A stretch of DNA of 64,000 nucleotides, from contig NC_092010.1 of assembly GCF_044704955.1 (NCBI RefSeq), positions 36,084,001 to 36,148,000 on the forward strand. The letters are read 5' to 3'. Source of the DNA: Pristiophorus japonicus. Its lineage: Eukaryota. The translations under genes and the position numbers were made by a program. Shown in pieces: positions 8,979 to 64,000 of the stretch (its first letter is position 1; every line of letters starts with the position of its first letter). The notes beneath the pieces are model-generated. The model was not told where the DNA came from and did no database searches. It saw only the letters and a program-made list of their open reading frames with translations.

Positions 8979-9181
8979 GGAAGAGAGGCTAGATCAGGTG
9001 GGGGTAGCAAGTGCTCTTCCCTGAAGGACATTAGGTTTTTAATGATAAGCTGGCAGCTTTCATGGTCATTTCAGTTCTGGTGCCTGCCCACAAAATTAGA
9101 AGAATTATTGAATTCAGTTTCACAGCTCACCATGAGAGATTTGAACTCAGAACCGCTAAGTTGCTAGTTCAAGACCACAAC

Positions 9182-9415
9182 TGTCATGTATTCAACCAGC
9201 ATTGTAACCCATGTATAAACTGATCTAAGTTGTACACCGTGAGAACACTGACCACTAGGTGGGAGACACTCCTAACCTGGACCTTCAGGTTTAAAAGGGG
9301 AAGCTCCACCCACCTTCATCACTTGAGTGCTAAGGAATAAAGGACAGGTCACAGACTGACCTTCTCTCAAGCATGGGCCTCGTGTGCATTTATACTGTGT
9401 AGTAAGGACGTATCA
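9182..9415 (+). repeat. 5' LTR
   Basis: Direct repeat of 13073-13306; contains TTTAAAA and AATAAA. Confidence 0.95.
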
Positions 9416-9451
9416 ATGGCGACAAGAAACTGGGATTTAAACCACACGAGC

Positions 9452-9884
9452 ATGGCCACTAGCAGAACAGACTAGAGGTACTGTGTTAAGGAATGGTTGG
9501 GACAGAGATTCAACATTGTTAAAGCAGCACACAGTTCTCCAGGCAGACAAGGGCAGTCAGGCATGCCCCAACATGTAGTCGAACCCAGAGGGGGAGTTCG
9601 ACAGAGACAATGGCAAGCTGAACAGCGAGATTCACGCCATTGCAAGGGACAATGCGGCCAGTAATGGGGCCATCAACACCTGTTAATGGTGCACTCAAGG
9701 ACAATAACAGGGGCAGTCAGGGACATCGACTGGCAAGGGACCATTTGTTTCAAACCGCAACTCATGCTGGAGGCGTGGAGGCATACATTCAGCCTGAGTT
9801 TGCAGAGATGAGCAAAATACCTGCAGAAATTGCAGAAATGGACACTGGGGGAAATCACTGGAAGCTAAAGTTCAGCGAGTTCAT
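9452..9884 (+). pseudogene. gag: Decayed gag remnant
   Basis: ATG at 9452 is followed by TAG at codon 8; only about 430 bp long; broken zinc knuckle CWRRGGIHSA*VC (TGA 9795-9797) in the pol frame. Confidence 0.7.
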
Positions 9885-12800
9885 GTGGAGCACGTATACA
9901 GTTCATACACCAGGACGCCACCGATAATGATGAAAATGCTCCTCAATGGCATCCCAGTATCAATGGAGTTAGACACGGGTGCCAGCCAGTCCCTGATGGG
10001 TATCAAACAGTTCGAAAAGTTGTGGGCATCCAAGGCCAGGAGGCCAAAATTATCGCCGATTGACGCACAGCTACGGACTTACACAAAGCAGATCATTCCG
10101 GTGCTAGGCAGCGCCACGGTAGTCGTGACCCACAAAGATTCGGAGAACAGGTTGCCACTCTGGATTGTCCCAGGGGACGATCCCACACTACTGGGGAGGA
10201 GTTGGCTTGCTGTCATGAACTGGAAATGGGGCGATGTCAATGCAATTTCCTCTGTGGAGCGAGTATCATGCTCACAGGTCCTGGACAAATTTGACTCATT
10301 ATTTCAACCCGGCATTGGCACTTTCATGGGGGCCAAGGTAGTGATTCACATAAACCCGGACGCCAGACCAGTACACCACAAGGCCAGAGCGGTGCCGTAC
10401 GTGATGCAGGAAAAGATAGAAGGCGAATTGGACCGCCTGTTGAGGGAAGGCATCATCTCGCCAGTCGAATTCAGTGACTGGGCGAGCCCGATTGTGCCAA
10501 TGCTCAAGGTGGATGGGTCAGTCAGGATATGTGGCGATTACAAGGCCACCATCAATCGGGTGTCACTCCAAGACCAGTACCCGCTACCGAGAGCGGAGGA
10601 CCTCTTTGCGACGCTATCCGGTGGTAAACCTTTTTCAAAATTGGACCTGACCTCAGCTTACATGACCCAGAAGCTGGCGAGTGAGTCGAAGAAGCTGACC
10701 ACCATAACGACACACAAGGGGCTGTTTGAGTACAACAGATGTCCGTTCGGGATTCGCTCGGCCGCCGCGATCTTCCAACGAAATATGGAAAGCCTCCTCA
10801 AGTCGATTCCAGGGACGGTGGTTTTTCAGGACGACATCCTCATTACGGGTTACGATACTGAAGAACACCTCCACAACCTGGAGGAGGTGCTACGCAGACT
10901 GGACCGGGTAGGTCTGCGACTGAAAAAGGCGAAGTGCGTCTTCCTAGCTCCAGAGGTAGAATTCCTGGGGATGAGGGTAGCAGCAGACGGGATCAGCCCT
11001 ACTGCATCCAAGACGGAAGCGATCCAGAGAGCACCCAGACCCCGTAACACGATGGAGCTGCGTTCGTTCCTGGGGCTCCTGAACTATTTTGGTAACTTTC
11101 TTCCCAAATTGAGCACGCTGCTAGAGCCGCTACATGTGCTCCTACGCAAAGGTCGCGAATGGGTCTGGGGGGACAGCCAGGAAAGGGCTTTTAATAGAGT
11201 ACGCAATTTGTTATGTTCCAACAATCTGTTAACGCTATATGACCCATGTAAGAAACTTGTGTTAACGTGCGATGCGTCGTCCTATGGTGTCGGGTGTGTG
11301 TTGCAGCATGTCAATGCCAAGGGTCAGTTACAGCTGGTAGCTTATGCCTCCAGAAGTCTGTCCCAGGCAGAAAGGGGCTACGGGATGGTAGAAAAGGAGG
11401 CGCTCGCATGTGTATATGCGGTAAAGAAAATGCACCAGTACCTGTTTGGCAGGAAATTTGAGCTGGAAACAGATCACAAACCCCTAACGTCCCTTTTGGC
11501 CGACAACAAGGCCATAAATGCAAACGCATCGGCCCGCATACAGAGGTGGGCACTCACATTAGCTGCCTATGACTACACAATTCGGCACAGACCGGGCACT
11601 GAAAACTGCGCCGATGCACTCAGCAGGCTCCCACTAGCCACCACTGAGGGGGCTACCGAGCATGGTGCTGAGATGGTCATGGCTGTTGAAGCTTTCGGAA
11701 GCGAAGGCTCACCCGTGACAGCCCGTCAGATTAAAGTCTGGACAAATAGAGACCCGCTATTGTCTCTATTCAAGAAATGTGTCCTGAATGGGGACTGGGC
11801 AGCCACGTACAGGGCATGCCCTGAGAAATTTAAACCATTTCACAGGCGCAAGGATGAACTCTCGATTCAGGCCGATTGCCTACTGTGGGGAAACCGCGTA
11901 GTCATGCCCCAGATGGACAGAGAGGTGTTCATCAGAGAACTCCACAATGGGCACCCGGGCATTGTCACGATGAAGGCAATTGCCAGGTCACACGTTTGGT
12001 GGCCAGGGATAGACGCAGATCTGGAACTTTGTGTTCGCAGGTGCAACACGTGTGCCCAGCTGGGCCATGCGCCCAGGGAAGCCCCCCTTAGCCCCTGGCC
12101 ATGGCCCGCCAAGCCTTGGTCACGCATCCATGTGGACTACGCAGGTCCTTTCATGGGGAAAATGTTTTTGGTTGTAGTAGACGCCTACTCCAAATGGATC
12201 GAGTGTGACATTTTAAATTCAAGCACATCCTCTGCCACGGTAGAAAGTCTACGGGCAATGTTCGCCGCCCACGGTCTACCGGACATCTTGGTCAGCGACA
12301 ATGGCCCGTGCTTCACAAGCACTGAATTCCAGGACTTCATGGCAGGCAATGGAATTAACCATGTTAGAACGGCACCGTTCAAGCCGGCCTCAAACGGCCA
12401 GGCAGAACGAGCAGTGCAGATAATCAAACAGGGGATGCTCAGAATCCAAGGGGGTTCCCTACAAACCCGCTTATCACGCCTCCTGTTGGCCTATAGATCC
12501 CGACCACACTCGCTCACAGGGGTTCCACCCGCAGAGCTACTAATGAAAAGGACGCTCAAAACCCGATTATCCCTTATACACCCCACCATGAAAGAAATTG
12601 TCGAGAGCAGGCGCCAGTCACAATATCACTACCATGACAGGAATGCGAGGGCGCGATGTATTGATGTAAATGATCCTGTTTTTGTCCTCAACTACGCTGC
12701 AGGGCCCAAATGGCTCGCAGGCACTGTGGTTGTCAAAGAGGGAAATAGGATTCTGGTAGTTAAACTTACCAATGGACAAATCTGCCGCAAACATGTGGAT

Positions 12801-13043
12801 CAAACAAAAAGGAGGTTCAGCAACCCCATAGAAGAAGCAGAGGATGAACACGATATAGAGTTCACTCCACCACAGGTGACCGAACACCGGAACCAAAGGG
12901 AGGAGAGCCCAGTCACTGTGGGCAGTCCGGACAGGCCTGAGGCACTGCAAACAGCAGACACTCAGGCCAGCGCCCAACAACCGGAGCCCCAACTCAGGCG
13001 CTCTACAAGGGAGCGTAAACCACCAGAGAGACTCAACCTGTGA
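9885..13043 (+). CDS. pol: Gypsy Pol polyprotein (protease-RT-RNase H-integrase), 1052 codons open; first in-frame ATG at 9927
   Basis: Protease LDTGAS, RT FQDD, RNase H TCDAS/EKEALA/TDHKPL, integrase HHCC and D,D-35-E (HVDYAGP, VSDNGP, QAERAV), in Gypsy domain order. Confidence 0.95.
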   Translation: MEHVYSSYTRTPPIMMKMLLNGIPVSMELDTGASQSLMGIKQFEKLWASKARRPKLSPIDAQLRTYTKQIIPVLGSATVVVTHKDSENRLPLWIVPGDDPTLLGRSWLAVMNWKWGDVNAISSVERVSCSQVLDKFDSLFQPGIGTFMGAKVVIHINPDARPVHHKARAVPYVMQEKIEGELDRLLREGIISPVEFSDWASPIVPMLKVDGSVRICGDYKATINRVSLQDQYPLPRAEDLFATLSGGKPFSKLDLTSAYMTQKLASESKKLTTITTHKGLFEYNRCPFGIRSAAAIFQRNMESLLKSIPGTVVFQDDILITGYDTEEHLHNLEEVLRRLDRVGLRLKKAKCVFLAPEVEFLGMRVAADGISPTASKTEAIQRAPRPRNTMELRSFLGLLNYFGNFLPKLSTLLEPLHVLLRKGREWVWGDSQERAFNRVRNLLCSNNLLTLYDPCKKLVLTCDASSYGVGCVLQHVNAKGQLQLVAYASRSLSQAERGYGMVEKEALACVYAVKKMHQYLFGRKFELETDHKPLTSLLADNKAINANASARIQRWALTLAAYDYTIRHRPGTENCADALSRLPLATTEGATEHGAEMVMAVEAFGSEGSPVTARQIKVWTNRDPLLSLFKKCVLNGDWAATYRACPEKFKPFHRRKDELSIQADCLLWGNRVVMPQMDREVFIRELHNGHPGIVTMKAIARSHVWWPGIDADLELCVRRCNTCAQLGHAPREAPLSPWPWPAKPWSRIHVDYAGPFMGKMFLVVVDAYSKWIECDILNSSTSSATVESLRAMFAAHGLPDILVSDNGPCFTSTEFQDFMAGNGINHVRTAPFKPASNGQAERAVQIIKQGMLRIQGGSLQTRLSRLLLAYRSRPHSLTGVPPAELLMKRTLKTRLSLIHPTMKEIVESRRQSQYHYHDRNARARCIDVNDPVFVLNYAAGPKWLAGTVVVKEGNRILVVKLTNGQICRKHVDQTKRRFSNPIEEAEDEHDIEFTPPQVTEHRNQREESPVTVGSPDRPEALQTADTQASAQQPEPQLRRSTRERKPPERLNL

Positions 13044-13072
13044 TCCCAATAAGACTTTGGGGGGTGAGGTGA

Positions 13073-13306
13073 TGTCATGTATTCAACCAGCATTGTAACC
13101 CATGTATAAACTGATCTAAGTTGTACACCGTGAGAACACTGACCACTAGGTGGGAGACACTCCTAACCTGGACCTTCAGGTTTAAAAGGGGAAGCTCCAC
13201 CCACCTTCATCACTTGAGTGCTAAGGAATAAAGGACAGGTCACAGACTGACCTTCTCTCAAGCATGGGCCTCGTGTGCATTTATACTGTGTAGTAAGGAC
13301 GTATCA
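13073..13306 (+). repeat. 3' LTR
   Basis: Direct repeat of 9182-9415. Confidence 0.95.
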
Positions 13307-13444
13307 ACAACCACCACATTACTATACCCCATAGGATTACCACTCTTTGCTATACTGTTATAGAGAAACACCATACAGAGAGAGAAACACCATCCCACAA
13401 GGGGGAAGAAAGATCAGCGGGAGAGCCATCCTGATCTTGACTCA

Positions 13445-14875
13445 CACACTTTTTAAAAAAGGAGGGAGAGAGAAAATGGGGAATTATAGACCGGTTAGCC
13501 TGACTTCGGTAGTGGGGAAAGTGTTGGAATCAATCATTAAGGATGAAATAGCAGCGCATTTGGAAAGCAGTGACAGGATCAGACCAAGTCAGCATGGATT
13601 TATGAAGGGGAAATCATGCTTGACGAATCTTCTAGAATTTTTTGAGGATGTAACTAGCAGAGTGGACAAGGGAGAACCAGTGGATGTGGTGTATTTGGAC
13701 TTTCAAAAGGCTTTTGACAAGGTCCCGCACAAGAGATTGGTGTGCAAAATCAAAGCGCATGGTATTGGGGGTAATGTACTGACGTGGATAGAGAACTGGT
13801 TGGCAGACAGGAAGCAGAGAGTCGGGATAAACGGGTCCTTTTCAGAATGGCAGGCAGTGATTAGTGGAGTACCGCAGGGCTCAGTGCTGGGACCCCAGCT
13901 CTTTACAATATACATTAACGATTTAGATGAAGGAATTGAATGTAATATCTCCAAGTTTGCGGATGACACTAAACTGGGTGGCGGTGTGAGCTGTGAGGAG
14001 GACGCTAAGAGGCTGCAGGGTGACTTGGACAGGTTAGGTGAGTGGGGCAAATGCATGGCAGATGCAGTATAATGTGGATAAATGTGAGGTTATCCACTTT
14101 GGGGGCAAAACACGAAGGCCGAATATTATCTGGATGGCGGCAGATTAGGAAAAGGGGAGGTGCAACGAGACCTGGGTGTCATGGTTCATCAGCCGCTGAA
14201 AGTGGGCATGCAGGTGCAGCAGGTGGTGAAGAAGGCAAATGGTATGTTGGCCTTCATAGCTAGAGGATTTGAGTATAGGAGCAGGGAGGTCTTACTGCAG
14301 TTGTACAGGGCCTTGGTGAGGCCTCACCTGGAATATTGTGTTCAGTTTTGGTCTCCTAATCTGAGGAAGGACATTCTTGCTATTGAGGGTGTGCAGCGAA
14401 GGTTCACCAGACTGATTCCAGGGATGGCTGGACTGTCATATGAGGAGAGACTGGATCAACTGGAGTTTAGAAGGATGAGAGGGGATCTCATAGAAACGTA
14501 TAAGATTCTGACGGGACTGGACAGGTTAGATGCGGGAAGAATGTTCCCGATGTTGGGGAAGTCCAGAACCAGGGGACATAGTCTTAGGATAAGGGGTCGG
14601 CCAAGAAGGACTGAGATGAGGAGAAACTTCTTCACTCAGAGAGTTGTTAACCTGTGGAATTCCCTGCTGCAGAGAGTTGTTGATGCCAGTTCATTGGATA
14701 TATTCAAGAGGGAGTTAGATATGGCCCTTACGGCTAAGGGGATCAAGGGGTATGGAGAGAAAGCAGGAAAGGGGTACTGAGGTGAATGATCAGCCATGAT
14801 CTTATTGAATGGTGGTGCAGGCTCGAAGGGCCGAATGGCCTACTCCTGCACCTATTTTCTATGTTTCTATGTTTC
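13445..14875 (+). mobile_element. CR1 5'-truncated copy (RT region)
   Basis: ORFs 13347..14072 and 14160..14780 with KFADDTKL; one frameshift and a 15-nt in-frame deletion; (TTCTATGT)n tail. Confidence 0.93.
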
Positions 14876-27300: not shown

Positions 27301-30300
27301 ATCCAGCCTAATCCCACTTTCCAACTCTTGGTCCGTAGCCCTATAGGTTTCGGCACTCCAAGTGCACATCCAAGTACTTTTTAAATATGGTGAGGGTTTC
27401 TGCCTCTACCACCCTTACAGGCCGTGAGTTCCAGACCCCCACCACCCTCTGGGTGAAAACATTTCTCCTCAACCCCCCTCTAATCCTTCTACCAATTACT
27501 TCCAATTTAAATCTATGCCCCCTGGCTATGGACATCGCTGCTAAGTGAAATAGGTCCTTCCTATCCACTCTATCCAGGCCCCTCATAATTTTATACACCT
27601 CAATTAAGTTTCCCCTCAGCCTCCTCTGTTCCAAAGAAAACAACCCCAGCCTATCCAATCTGAAAGTTATTTGTCAATAAATCTGCATAGTGAAACCACA
27701 GACACCTTTAAGGATCTTCCACGGATGTACAGTGTATTAATTCAGGAAAAGGTTGGCTTCATCCGCCATAAATTCTTAACCTGGAAAGCAAATAGTTAGA
27801 AGCCATCAAATGGTCTTCAATCTGATTGTCGATGTTCCCATAGACGGACAGACAATATGGTGCTATATTATTATCCAGAATAAAATGTGGACTATAATAA
27901 CAGTGATTGACAAAAATTCAACATTAACAGTGGATCTTTTTTCTTGATGCAGATGGTGGGACAGTTAATCCTACTCTTCAACAAGCTCCCATCAAGGTTG
28001 TTGCCTATAACGTCTGCTCCCAGCCCGAATGGTGGGGTTATTATGTCACATCAAACATGGTGTGTGCTGGAGGTGATGGTATCATTGCTGGTTGTCAGGT
28101 AATAATCTTGGATACTCTCTTTCAATGGACATATTGAAGAAGATATTGACAATCCTGAGTACTATCAGTGCAATGGGAAGCCTCTTGTCATGAGGCCACA
28201 CTTACCCTTACTTTCAATTTTCTTTTCTCTTCATCTCTCAGCACAGGAACATAGGGATGTGCAGGACTGGAAAAGGCCATTATGGTCCAGCCAGCAGCTC
28301 CCAAAGTCTGGAATATATCATACACCACTCTATCTCTCATTACCCTCAATCGCTTCCCTCATCAAACATTCAACCAGCTACCTCTTGTTTTTACTGACAC
28401 CGTCTGCCTCATTCTTTCCTCATCGTGTCAGCTGTGGCTCATTGGTAGCACTATCACCTCAGAGGGTTGTGGGTTCAAGTCCCACTCCAGAGATTTGAGC
28501 ACATAATCTCGGCTGACATTCCAGAGTAGTGCTGAGGGAGCGCCGCACTGTCGGAGGGGCAGTACTGAGTGGGCACTGCACTGTCGGAGGGGCAGTACTG
28601 AGTAAGCACTGCACTGTCGGAGGGGCCAGTACTGAGTGAGCACTGCACTGTCGGAGGGGCAGTGCTGAGGGAGCGCTGCACTGTTGGAGGGGCAGTACTG
28701 AGGGAGTGCTGCACTGTCGGAGGGGCAGTACTGAGGGAGCGCTGCACTGTCGGAGAGGCAGTACTGAGGGAACGCTGCACTGTTGGAGGGGCAGTACTGA
28801 GGGAGCACCGCATTGTCGGAGGGGCGGTACTGAGGGAGCGCCGCACTGTCGGAGGGGCAGTGCTGAAGGAGCACCTCACTGTCGGAGGGGCAGTACTAAG
28901 GGAGTGCTGCACTGTCGGAGGGGCAGTACTGAGGGAGCGCCGCACTGGCAAAGGGGCAGTACTGAGGGAGTGCTGCACTGTCGGAGGGGCAGTGTTGAGG
29001 GAGTGCTGCACTGTCGGCGGTGCTGCCTTTTAGTTGAGACATTAAACCGAGACCGCGTCTACTCTCTCAAGTGGCATAAAAGATCCCACGGCACTATTTC
29101 GAAGAAGAGTAGGAGAGTTCTGAGCCAATAATTATCCACCAATCAACGTCACTAAAACAGACAATCTGGTCATTATTACATTGCTGTTTGCGGGAGTTTG
29201 CTGTGTACAAATTGACTGTAAAGCGCTTTGGGACCTCTTGAGGTGGTGAAAGGGACTATATAAATACGAGTCGTTCTGTTTTTCTTTCTCTGTCCTTTCC
29301 TCCATTTCTTGCTCACTTATCACTCCTGTTCTTTCTTTCACTCCCATTTTCTTTTCAATATTTCTCTTATTTCTCCATCACCGTTTTTTCTCTTTATGTT
29401 TCTCTACCTTCCTGTTACTCTTTCTTTCTATGTCTCCTTGATTTCTGTGCCCATTTTGATTTGACTTTTTTGATAGATTTTTAAAAAATTAAATAAATCT
29501 TACGTACTCCAGCATGAGGGACTGAATATAACTGGGTTTTTCCTCACAGGGAGATTCTGGTGGGCCTCTAAATTGTCAGCATAATGGGATATTCTACGTC
29601 CACGGAGCCACCAGCTTTGTCGCTGCAGCAGGATGTGACACCTACATGAAGCCAACGGTCTGGACCCGTGTCTCATCTTACATCAACTGGATCAATGATG
29701 TATGTTAGCGCTTGATTTTTGTTATCATTTTATATACTGTATAAGATGCTACAGGATAAATGTTCTGATTTAACACTCCTTGCACAGAGCTTCGTGTGAT
29801 GGGATATATATTGGTAATGGCACCCTGCATGATTATCCGTCCATTTAAATCTGGAGCCATCAGGCCCATGAAGTAGGAGATGGATGGGCGGGGGGGGGGG
29901 GGGTGGGGGGGCAGGCCGATCCAGAATGAGGTCGCTGACAGACACGATATATAGGTGGGCGTCTTGAAACAAGATACAAGCGAGGGAAATATGTCCTCTG
30001 ACATAATTCCCACCATTTGCAACACTGGGCGCCAGAAGTGTTGCCATGGCGATGGAGGAGAGGCCTAAGATTTTTTTTGCTGCCAGGGCCTGTCCAATCA
30101 CTCGCAGAGTGCTGGAGTGCACAGGCCAAAGAGGAAAGCGGAATATTTTTCAACAGATTTGGCTTCCTTAATGGCATTTGTCATTAATTGCAGTGTTTTA
30201 AAATGTGAAAGCACCTTAGTGTAATGTGACCAACAGACTTGATTTCCACCATCAGCCCCATGTCACGCTCTGACCCAGAAACTCTACGCATACTTGCACG

Positions 30301-52200: not shown

Positions 52201-55200
52201 CATGTACAGTACTGTAATAGCTGAATTTCTCTGCTCTGTTTACCATTCAAAGACCAGTGTCTGATGGCCAGTATGGGGTCACCAGAAAGCCAGCTGAAAT
52301 GTATAGTGCACAATTCCCTGACGTGTTTTACAAAACCTTCTGTGCGCAAAGCAAATACACCAGATATCCAGCTGAAATATATAATGTGTGATTCCCTGCA
52401 GTGCTTTCCAAAACCTGAGCGCAAAGCAAATACACCAGAAAGCCAGCTGAAATATATAATGTATGATTCCCTGCAGTGCTTTCCAAAACCTGGGCGCAAA
52501 GCAAATACACCAGAAAGCCAGCTGAAATATATAATGTATGATTCCCTGCAGTGCTTTCCAAAACCTGGGCGCAAAGCAAATATACCAGAAAGCCAGCTGA
52601 AATGTATAGTGCATAATTTCCTGCCGTGTTTTACAAAACCTGAGCACAAAGCAAATATTTTGCTGCAGTATGCAACCCAAACATTTGTCCACTAATCTCA
52701 AATGTTGACCGTGCCCCCTTTATTAACAGTGTAATGATGGTCCCCAGTGAGTTGGCTAGTAAACTGTGTACCTGAATCATAGACTCGAAGGTCGCAGCTT
52801 TATTTCCTGGTCTGTGCTGAGTGACCTGATCTCAGCCAGGCTACAGGTACAACGTCTCAAATCCAGCAACCTCAGGACCGAGACCGTGCTGGTTTTCGCA
52901 TTTTTCCAGATTTTGGACAAGGAAATCAATAAAATCAGTCGCCTGTCTTTAACAGACAAAGTACTATGGTAGCATGGGTCAGGTCAGGCTGGGTCGAGGG
53001 TCATTCACCAAGGCTCGGACCAATCGCACGCCACTTAAAACATAGCGGCAAAGCCGATAGCTAGTCTGGCCCGCTGTTTTTTGGACAATAATTCCGGATT
53101 TTATTTTACTGAATATCAAATGGGATCTTCTCAAAAATGTCTGGTTTTTGGACACTTTCAATTTTCAGACAGCCGGATTTGAGACATTGTACCTGAAATA
53201 CAGTTGGTCTCGGTGCTCATAGACCAGTGAGAAAAAAATTGGCCAAAGTTCCAGCTTTTGATTGCTGTCCAGTGATCCTTGCTGAAGTCTGCATGTGTGT
53301 GGACAGGATCTGGTTCACTAGTGATGCATTTTTCCTTTCCCTCTCCTCCCCCAGTACAGTTGGAAAACAGCAGCATACCCTCATTGTGATAAAACTGCTT
53401 ACAGATTAATTGCTGACTTTCTTATTTTATTTTCCCCCCCGCTTCCTCCTCCCCCCCCTTCCTCTCCCCTACCCCAGGCTTACTGGTCACCCGTTGTCAC
53501 CATTTTTTACAACTGCGAAGAGGAGTTCTTTAAGTTCAGCCATCATCTCAAAGGTCAAACGTTTGAATGCAAACTATGAACGATTTCTGGAAAGAAACTT
53601 TCCACGTTTTTATGTGATCTATTCAACCTTTTTCAAAGGTGAGTTAATGGTCAGAAGATACTGATCATTCATTTTTCAGCAGTAACCATGACAAAAGCTA
53701 TGGGGGCGGGTGGTGAGGGTGTGGGAGAGAGCACACAACTTGTGATATACCAATACAATATAGGGAAAAAGTCAAAATTGCATTTACTGTCCATTGCTAC
53801 AGTTTCGGAGTTGCCCATTACATTTGGTGGCGTTCACTACATTAACAGAAAGTGTCTTTAGTCCCTCCTCAGTAAGTAAGCATTGCCCAGTGTAATATTG
53901 GACCGTACAGACCAAAAGATTTAATTTGTGGTCTGGTGCATTGCCGATGTTGGACAGGGCTAGAGTTGGGAGTGCTACAATTCACTTAAGAGAAGGAGAA
54001 CACAATCAGCCAGGGTTCCCACTCCCAATTGCTATTCAGTGACCACATTCAACAACAACCGCTTGCATTTATATTGCACCTTAACTTACAAAAGTGTCCC
54101 AGGATATTTCACAAAGGACGAAAGGAATGGATGCTGAGCCGTTGCAGGAGCAACAGAAGTGATCAAAAGCTTGGTCGAAGAGATAAGCTTTGAGGAGCCT
54201 TTTAAAGCTGGAGAGGGGGAGTGGGGAAGGAATTTCAGAGAGTAGGGTTGAGATGGCTGAATGTGCCACTAATTATAGAGTGGAAGGGGAGAGGATTCAC
54301 AGGACCGTAGTCAAGAGGGTCAGAGGGCATGGGAGGCGACGTAGACTGGAAGGGGTTGCTTAGGTAGGGTGGGGGTGATGTACACAAGACTGTAGTCAGA
54401 GGTCATGGGAGGGGAGATAGGCCGGAGGGCGTTGTAGAGGAAGGGTGGGGTGAGGCTGTAGAGGGATTTGTGGATGAAATGAGAATTTTAAATGCTATGC
54501 TTTTATCGGACAGGGAGCCAGCGCAGGTCAGTCGTGGATCTATGCCCCAGTAGAGTCGGTGTCTCCAGGAGGAGGATAGAGTACAAAAGCAGAGAAGTCC
54601 TGCTCTACAACTGTACAAGGGTATTGGTGAGGTCACACCTGGAGTACTGCGTGCAGTATTGGTCTCTGTATTTAAGGAAGGATATACTCGCATTCAGAGA
54701 AGGTTCACTCGGTTGATTCCGGAGATGAGGGGGTTGACTTATGAAGATGGGTTGAGTAGGTTGGGCCGATACTCATTGGAGTTCAGAAGAATGAGAGGTG
54801 ATCTTATCGAAACATAGAAGATAATGAGGGGGCTCGACAAATTGGATGCAGAGAGGATATTTCCACTCATAGGGGAAACTAAAACTAGGGGGCAGAGTCT
54901 CAAAATAAGGGGCCGCCCATTTAAAACTGAGATGAGGAGGAATTTCTTCTCTGAGGATTGCAAATCTGTGGAATTCTCTGCCCCAGAGAGCTGTGGAGGC
55001 TGGGTCATTGAATATATTTAAGGCGGAGATAGACAGATTTTTGAGCGATAAGGGAGTAAAGGGTTATGAGGAGCGGGCAGGGAAGTGGAACTGAGTCCAT
55101 GATCAGATCAGCCGTGATCTTATTAATCAGCTCAATTAATAGCAGGCTCGAGGGGCCAAATGGCCTACTCCTGCTATTTCTTATGAAGTTGGGGGTGGTG

Positions 55201-63413: not shown

Positions 63414-63655
63414 CAACAACAACTTACATTTATATTGCGCCTGTAACGTAGAAAAACTTCCCATGGTGTTTTGCCAAAGTGCAATCAGATGGAAATGGAG
63501 GCCAAGCCAAAGAAGGGGATTTTAGGAGGGATGACCCAAAGCTTGGTCAAGGTGGGGGGGGGGGGGTCTTAAACGTGGAGAGGAAGAGGGGTTTCGGGAG
63601 GGAATTCCAGAGCTTACGGCCTGGACAGCTGAAGGCACGGCTGCCGGTGGTGGGA
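63414..63655 (-). mobile_element. L2 LINE 3' end
   Basis: Similar to 54050-54260; (TTG)n tail. Confidence 0.7.
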
Positions 63656-64000
63656 TTACAGAGATAGGGAGGGGTTGTGGGGCTGGAGGAGGTTACAGAG
63701 ATAGGGAGCGGTGTAGGGGCTGGAGGAGGTTACAGAGATAGGGAGGGGTGTAGGGGCTGGAGGGGGTTACAGAGATAGGGAGGGGTGTAGGGGCTGGAGG
63801 AGGTTACAGAGATAGGGAGGGGTGTAGGGGCTGGAGGAGGTTAGAGATGGGGGGGGGGTATAGGGGCTGGAGGAGGTTAGAGATAGGGAGGGGTATAGGG
63901 GCTGGAGGAGGTTAGAGATGGGGGGTGGGGTATAGGGGCTGGAGGAGGTTAGAGATAGGGAGGGGTATAGGGGCTGGAGGAGGTTAGAGATGGGGGTGGG
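63655..64000 (+). repeat. G-rich minisatellite of about 35-38 bp (GTTACAGAGATAGGGAGGGGTGTAGGGGCTGGAGGAG), running off the window
   Basis: About 9 tandem units contiguous with the L2 sequence. Confidence 0.92.

Follow-up and report, generated by a model that had tools for sequence, protein, structure and literature searches.

Within a 64,000-nucleotide (nt) stretch of the Pristiophorus japonicus genome (contig NC_092010.1, positions 36,084,001 to 36,148,000; here, the window, whose own numbering we use throughout), we examined a long terminal repeat (LTR) retrotransposon at 9182..13306 on the forward strand. It belongs to a high-copy Gypsy family from which the capsid domain has been deleted and in which pol has remained constrained, and which probably replicates by means of its own Pol, using capsids supplied by a capsid-bearing relative. 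Here, we will refer to it as the window family.

The element is a Ty3/Gypsy LTR retrotransposon by its pol order, TG...CA LTR ends, short target-site duplication (TSD), primer-binding site (PBS), and polypurine tract (PPT; 13057..13072). An original prediction made from these letters alone had reported identical LTRs and a perfect duplication, and both are present: the 5' LTR (9182..9415, of the young-subfamily type) and the 3' LTR (13073..13306) have 0 mismatches over 234 nt, and ACAAC can be read on both sides (9177..9181 and 13307..13311). The PBS begins TGGCGAC and is shared with the parent and sister families introduced below; it lies, together with an in-frame ATG upstream at the end of the LTR, in 9416..9427. 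The predicted open pol frame also stands. It runs from 9798 to 13043, 1081 codons without a stop, and carries protease (PR), reverse transcriptase (RT), RNase H, and integrase (IN) in Gypsy order with catalytic motifs in place (protease LDTG at 9969, RT FQDD at 10824, RNase H CDAS at 11268, integrase HHCC from 11943, and SDNG at 12294). What is left of gag, here the leader, extends from the native gag ATG at 9452 to 9926.

Capsid loss across the family

The window family is large, with 3,523 exact matches to its LTR-end/PBS junction in the genome, and the short leader follows this junction in 40/40 sampled LTR-PBS loci; a leader search scored 40 matches at 96 to 100% from 2,301 candidates. A second family, the parent (4,453 matches to a loosened linker pattern), has a capsid, two intact CCHC knuckles, and a single Gag-Pol open reading frame (ORF), together with the same leader, PBS, LTR start, and PPT. 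LTRs of the two families are 83 to 87% alike and their pol regions 90 to 93% alike. Relative to the parent, the window family has lost 51, 462, and 90 nt of gag at approximately 9487, 9503, and 9834, all in frame, so that the capsid is gone (middle deletion), knuckle 2 is cut (last deletion), and one leader-Pol fusion ORF results. The middle deletion measures 451 to 464 nt against 13 aged parent copies and 462 nt in 4 of them.

The same three junctions occur in family copies with different TSDs. Across 225 loci, the three junctions went together, with the deleted state throughout in 108 full calls and the parental state throughout in 69; no locus was mixed, and the remainder were partly unreadable. 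Two pol trees each group the capsid-less copies in a single clade within the parent, with 74/74 (support, 0.53) and 36/36 (support, 0.87) of them included. The capsid-less family thus has a single origin: a full-length parent with one Gag-Pol ORF underwent three in-frame gag deletions. The view that this lineage lost Gag function before multiplying, and kept pol, is borne out by these capsid deletions, which are common to the sampled family copies.

The deleted segment has a confidently predicted, helical, two-lobed fold (predicted local distance difference test [pLDDT], 92.8). Its best structural matches are the capsids of PNMA2, Arc, murine leukemia virus, and Ty3 (best E value, 0.013 with a probability of 1.00; none under 0.001); by sequence, the parent capsid reaches only an E value of about 1 in the PDB and 0.013, below the cutoff, for Pfam Retrotrans_gag. 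The remaining leader is predicted to be unstructured (single-sequence model; pLDDT, 41). Residue 184 is where the protease motif falls in the window family, compared with about residue 300 (221 to 375) in 57 full-length relatives from other species; the gag profile of those relatives matches the window family in the knuckle region only.

Both zinc knuckles are degenerate (9765..9833). Of 35 family copies, 25 have Arg at the second Cys position of knuckle 1, 6 have His, and 2 have Cys, which is present in 45/50 parents; the Arg/His mix looks like the pattern of CpG decay from an Arg codon. Knuckle 2 is cut to CRNC. The truncation first described as CRNC..GH is therefore real in its cut, although the GH derives from beyond the 90-nt deletion and not from knuckle 2 itself. 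With the capsid absent and the knuckles degenerate family-wide, the window family is not an autonomous Ty3/Gypsy element.

Among 28 readable copies, the leader is open into pol in 15, has an in-frame stop in 11, and is frameshifted in 2; it is open in 13/35 copies of an unbiased sample. These counts bear on the suggestion that Pol starts anew at 9927 (MMKM), which we do not uphold: the Met-Met at this position is present in 46/47 readable parent copies and is thus inherited and ancestral, and in the copies just counted as open the frame runs from the gag ATG.

Two further observations concern the capsid-less sequence itself. A tandem run on contig C1 with 4.6-kb spacing was considered as a longer element and rejected. 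It consists of five capsid-less copies (L170-L172; C1:104.40-104.43 Mb), 99.9% alike at a spacing of ~4.64 kb inside a satellite array, and these copies amplified together with the array. In addition, contigs from a sequencing run labeled as another organism (X9) cover window positions 9284-9873 and span all three deletion junctions at a depth of at most 10; they may come from a related species or represent carry-over.

Selection on pol and age of the capsid-less lineage

We estimated the ratio of nonsynonymous to synonymous substitution rates (dN/dS) from net divergence between groups of natural copies, with within-group values as the baseline. Net pol dN/dS was 0.19 for parent subfamilies and 0.22 to 0.31 for capsid-less subfamilies, compared with 0.63 to 0.76 within groups. 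Pooled old versus young capsid-less copies gave 0.26 (confidence interval [CI], 0.13 to 0.52) against a within-group baseline of 0.67 to 0.72; the same comparison gave 0.02 for the RT part and 0.33 (0.14 to 0.83) without CpG codons. Near-fixed pol changes were 12 synonymous to 7 nonsynonymous, versus 577 to 994 at the level of single copies (Fisher P = 0.029). Pol has been under purifying selection after capsid loss, through successive capsid-less subfamilies, and the dN/dS comparison among gag-less copies proposed in the original prediction thus did not return neutrality. The leader, measured from parent to family, has a dN/dS of about 1.0 to 1.2 with wide intervals. A constrained pol behind a drifting, in-frame leader indicates that Pol mattered to the capsid-less masters and that the leader needed its frame only.

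LTR elements with deletions are mostly full parasites, and the window family could likewise take both Gag and Pol in trans, in which case the low dN/dS would stem from masters that did not last, from CpG effects, or from recombination with autonomous copies. Changes at the copy level, the window copy included, are neutral-like, as this alternative expects. Moreover, three capsid-bearing loci (L354, L362, and L364) contain pol tracts with capsid-less-like alleles and without the young alleles; these may be recombinants or stem-lineage copies, and they make exchange or shared ancestry real. However, the low dN/dS persists without CpG codons and equals that of the parent. Of 19 young-subfamily states, 36 parents carry 18 rarely or not at all; these states are thus new and were not imported from the parents. 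The three gag deletions are all in frame, which has a chance of 1 in 27 if they are independent, while the residues of the leader drift, and among 40 sampled copies there is no sign of a recurrent pol-deleted subfamily having taken over. Full parasitism therefore appears quite improbable, and use of its own Pol in cis, as implied by the constraint, is the reading we carry forward.

Dating places the capsid-less copies late. Terminal branches are 2.9 to 5.3% in parents, 1.8 to 3.6% in old and 1.0 to 2.3% in young capsid-less copies, and 0.75% in the window copy. Capsid-less copies have a median LTR divergence of 2.6% (33/40 datable), and the two parent samples have medians of 6.2% (10/20 datable) and 7.0% (16/20 datable); the difference between capsid-less copies and parents has P = 1e-7. 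With 7 more dated parent copies (4.0 to 11.2%), 33 dated parents span 3.2 to 11.2%, and 13 dated copies of sister families span 4.8 to 12.2%, such that the capsid-less median is lower than every one of 46 dated capsid-bearing relatives. The capsid-less family continued amplifying after the sampled parent copies stopped.

Search for the source of capsids

Gag is described as mandatory for LTR retrotransposition (PMC3977881), and capsids for the window family would accordingly come in trans. We envisage that translation at the old gag start yields a leader-Pol fusion and that this fusion and its own RNA would be carried into a helper particle, with no capsid domain by which to co-assemble. The element's own Pol would be favored in cis, and Gag would be provided by a few long-lived parent-type loci that leave few new copies.

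One candidate stationary source of Gag is a set of 13 segmental duplicates of a single old parent-type insertion (L456-L468; 12 on C7:226-238 Mb and 1 on C4142). Gag is open with both knuckles in 13/13, pol is broken, the 5' LTR is truncated, and the set is sister to the capsid-less clade; its branch has no clear constraint (0.50 versus 0.64), and the loci were found through a search for intact capsids. A tentative extension, possible though rather doubtful, is a full division of labor between mobile, capsid-less Pol carriers and host-expressed, immobile parent-type capsid loci with broken pol, in which the last burst proceeded without any autonomous element.

The original prediction had instead raised a Gag-only partner that shares these LTRs. 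None was found in 40 LTR-PBS loci (95% upper bound, 7%), in 30 sampled of 8,261 PPT-LTR loci (95% upper bound, 10%), or in the 28 best non-self LTR matches (26 family members and 2 solo LTRs). This matters for the alternative of a true split system, where a mobile family with Gag only, or Gag and protease only, gives capsids and takes RT and integrase from the window family. Such a system would account for both the constrained pol and the missing young full-length helpers, and Gag-Pro-only families do exist in wheat, as described for Sabrina and WHAM (PMC9744471). The null counts above, from searches confined to partners sharing LTR, PBS, or PPT, argue against it, as do 89 parent-targeted loci. 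Of these, 68 extend into PR and RT, 13 are missing the start of RT, 1 is missing a protease match only, and 7 are unclear. Those 13 have no breakpoint in common and thus reveal no recurrent pol deletion. A single old locus (L280/L294) keeps the capsid and has a deletion from the knuckles to mid-integrase; it is the sole capsid-bearing copy of that form, and no second copy was seen. We consider the split system unlikely, and return to a capsid-bearing relative as the more probable donor.

Several candidate helpers were examined and set aside. Among sister Gypsy families (65 to 70% nucleotide identity), 30 of 150 matches were examined; all are gag-pol, and the dated ones fall at 4.8 to 12.2% (20 extended, 13 dated, 6 without an LTR pair, and 1 dropped as a mis-paired repeat). 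The best-scoring parent capsids, taken as two sets of the best 150 matches each, yielded no copy dated under 3.2%, with 23 of 27 extended nonduplicate copies datable; the longest open frames in the two sets were 941 and 855 amino acids, versus up to 1240 in the capsid-less family. A search for capsid-bearing copies with the family's leader allele gave two matches, of which one is an old copy of the parent and the other a variant without capsid. The PBS start is also shared by about five more Gypsy families with capsids (L174-L203 and L406-L425), which are older and have unrelated LTRs.

That the family outlasted every dated capsid-bearing relative, with no helper found, could also be taken to mean that it dispenses with capsids altogether, the leader-Pol protein and RNA finishing reverse transcription and integration without a Gag shell. 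Against this stand the requirement for Gag cited above and a leader that has neither a predicted fold nor constraint. Helpers, moreover, need be neither young nor many, and the 13 old parent-type duplicates keep gag open. Replication without a capsid is very improbable.

A set of observations weighs against self-copying with borrowed capsids. On the side of selection, the estimate derives from about 20 net changes and does not reach significance for integrase by itself (dN/dS, 0.42; CI, 0.09 to 2.74), the window copy's own pol branch is neutral-like (0.63), and the support for the capsid-less clade is modest. On the side of the helper, 22/33 dated capsid-less copies are under 3.2% and 0/46 dated capsid-bearing relatives are that young; no capsid-bearing helper of matching age was found among the 33 dated parents and 13 dated sister copies, divergent young capsid families not having been searched; and the young-family alleles are absent from the capsid-bearing copies examined. 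Finally, the host genome is 5.9 Gb, searches scored the best 40 to 150 candidates each, and the unbiased sampling was drawn from the beginning of contig C1.

The window copy and known systems

Taken singly, the window copy is an ordinary damaged family member. Its private lesions lie within 9473..9797: a TAG at 9473-9475 (codon 8 after ATG 9452), a 2-nt insertion at 9627-9628, a 1-nt deletion at 9724, and a TGA at 9795-9797. The original prediction correctly listed both stops, the knuckle 1 Arg, the truncated knuckle 2, and MMKM at 9927, but missed the insertion and the deletion. Of 39 copies retrieved for comparison, 4 were excluded for being short or lacking an LTR and 1 for being a duplicate; in an alignment with the remaining 34 near-full copies, both stops and both indels occurred in the window copy only (0/34 others). 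The description of gag as long dead thus fits what is family-wide (the capsid loss, the cut in knuckle 2, and the replacement of Cys by Arg) and does not fit the stops. Recurrence across copies with different TSDs divides in the same way: the three deletions recur, but the stops are unique to this copy, an outcome that the original prediction had itself named as counting against it.

The leader TAG recurs at 9 other genomic places; none of these, nor any of 49 further copies with a measurable leader, has the other three lesions, and no source copy with the same lesions was found among them. Both LTRs carry two rare variants (9224 and 9291) upstream of the poly(A) signal, the second within a box that resembles a TATA element and in which 70/73 sampled LTRs have a different base. 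At the age of the window copy, the chance of a clean pol is ~0.24. Among 3,523 copies, ~4 are expected to combine four leader lesions with a clean pol, and 0.03 to 0.12 to have identical LTRs as well; these low numbers make the copy mildly unusual. Its identical LTRs probably reflect one of two events: late remobilization of an already damaged source copy, which we favor with some doubt, or LTR gene conversion, which taken by itself is unlikely; chance or a local assembly error is rather unlikely. Exact matches in four low-coverage runs left 9734-9742 uncovered and were too shallow to separate a real lesion from an assembly error.

Elsewhere in the window, a LINE-like reverse transcriptase frame (13335-14072) lies directly 3' of the element, dispersed LINE (long interspersed nuclear element) copies are abundant, and tandem arrays with periods of 33, 75, and ~37 nt occupy 28557-29084, 52340-52714, and 63615-64000.

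LTR elements that lack gag and keep pol intact are known from a few plant Copia cases, in which use of a helper is presumed. We found no gag-less, pol-intact Gypsy family reported for fishes or sharks in a literature search whose scope did not extend to subscription journals, Repbase, or supplements. The window family adds a Gypsy example from a vertebrate, in which the parent can be traced, subfamilies are dated, and there is a measured signal of Pol mattering in cis after capsid loss. It opens to testing the questions of how Pol, lacking a capsid domain, gets into a particle and of why a Gag borrower retains its enzymes. Capsid domestication is the route by which Arc, PNMA, and PEG10 arose. 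Should the helper be a stationary locus, it would represent an early step of such domestication that is tied to continued transposition.

Among known elements, K02A2.6-like single-ORF Gypsy elements of fishes and invertebrates have one Gag-Pol ORF and two CCHC knuckles and show 36 to 49% identity to the window family over knuckle, protease, and RT. They may represent the Mag clade, a label that the window family would receive by its similarity to K02A2.6-like proteins. Mouse IAP (intracisternal A particle) 1-delta-1 elements are reported (PMC6466679, PMC7411935) to have an internal deletion that creates one fusion ORF whose protein acts in cis, and to out-transpose a helper that may be a single master locus. 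The window family shares the in-frame internal deletion and single fusion ORF; however, part of pol is missing from IAP 1-delta-1, which depends on Gag and Pol supplied in trans, whereas PR, RT, RNase H, and IN of the window family are complete and constrained. The "semi-autonomous" Wilma, Sabrina, and WHAM families of wheat and Athila of Arabidopsis, as described in PMC9744471 and PMC2410132, are nonautonomous with ORFs under purifying selection; they keep gag (or env) and lose pol and are, on that description, the mirror image of the window family. Foamy viruses provide a described example of Pol packaging bridged by RNA without fusion to Gag (PMC3196705).

Nearest in organization are two plant Copia elements. 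In barley BARE-2, according to PMC9744471, gag is disrupted family-wide, the other genes are intact, and the Gag of its close relative BARE-1 is presumed to be used. Rice Tos17 has cleanly lost gag and retains a long pol ORF, intact LTR, PBS, and PPT, and a PBS in common with a presumed, unproven helper (PMC3977881). As in these Gag borrowers, gag was lost before amplification in the window family, and the remaining pol appears complete by its domains, motifs, and purifying selection, with enzyme function predicted from sequence. Like Tos17, it has a long pol ORF, intact LTR, PBS, and PPT, and a PBS shared with a capsid-bearing relative, here its parent. Unlike BARE-2 as described, it is a vertebrate Gypsy family with in-frame capsid deletions, a retained start codon, and no age-matched helper found; and whereas Tos17 has two copies and no gag remnant, the window family numbers ~3,500 copies, can be traced to its parent, and has had the selection on its pol measured. 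Taken together, the window family is best read as resembling Gag borrowers of the BARE-2/Tos17 type, set apart by its Gypsy affiliation, vertebrate host, high copy number, and measured selection.

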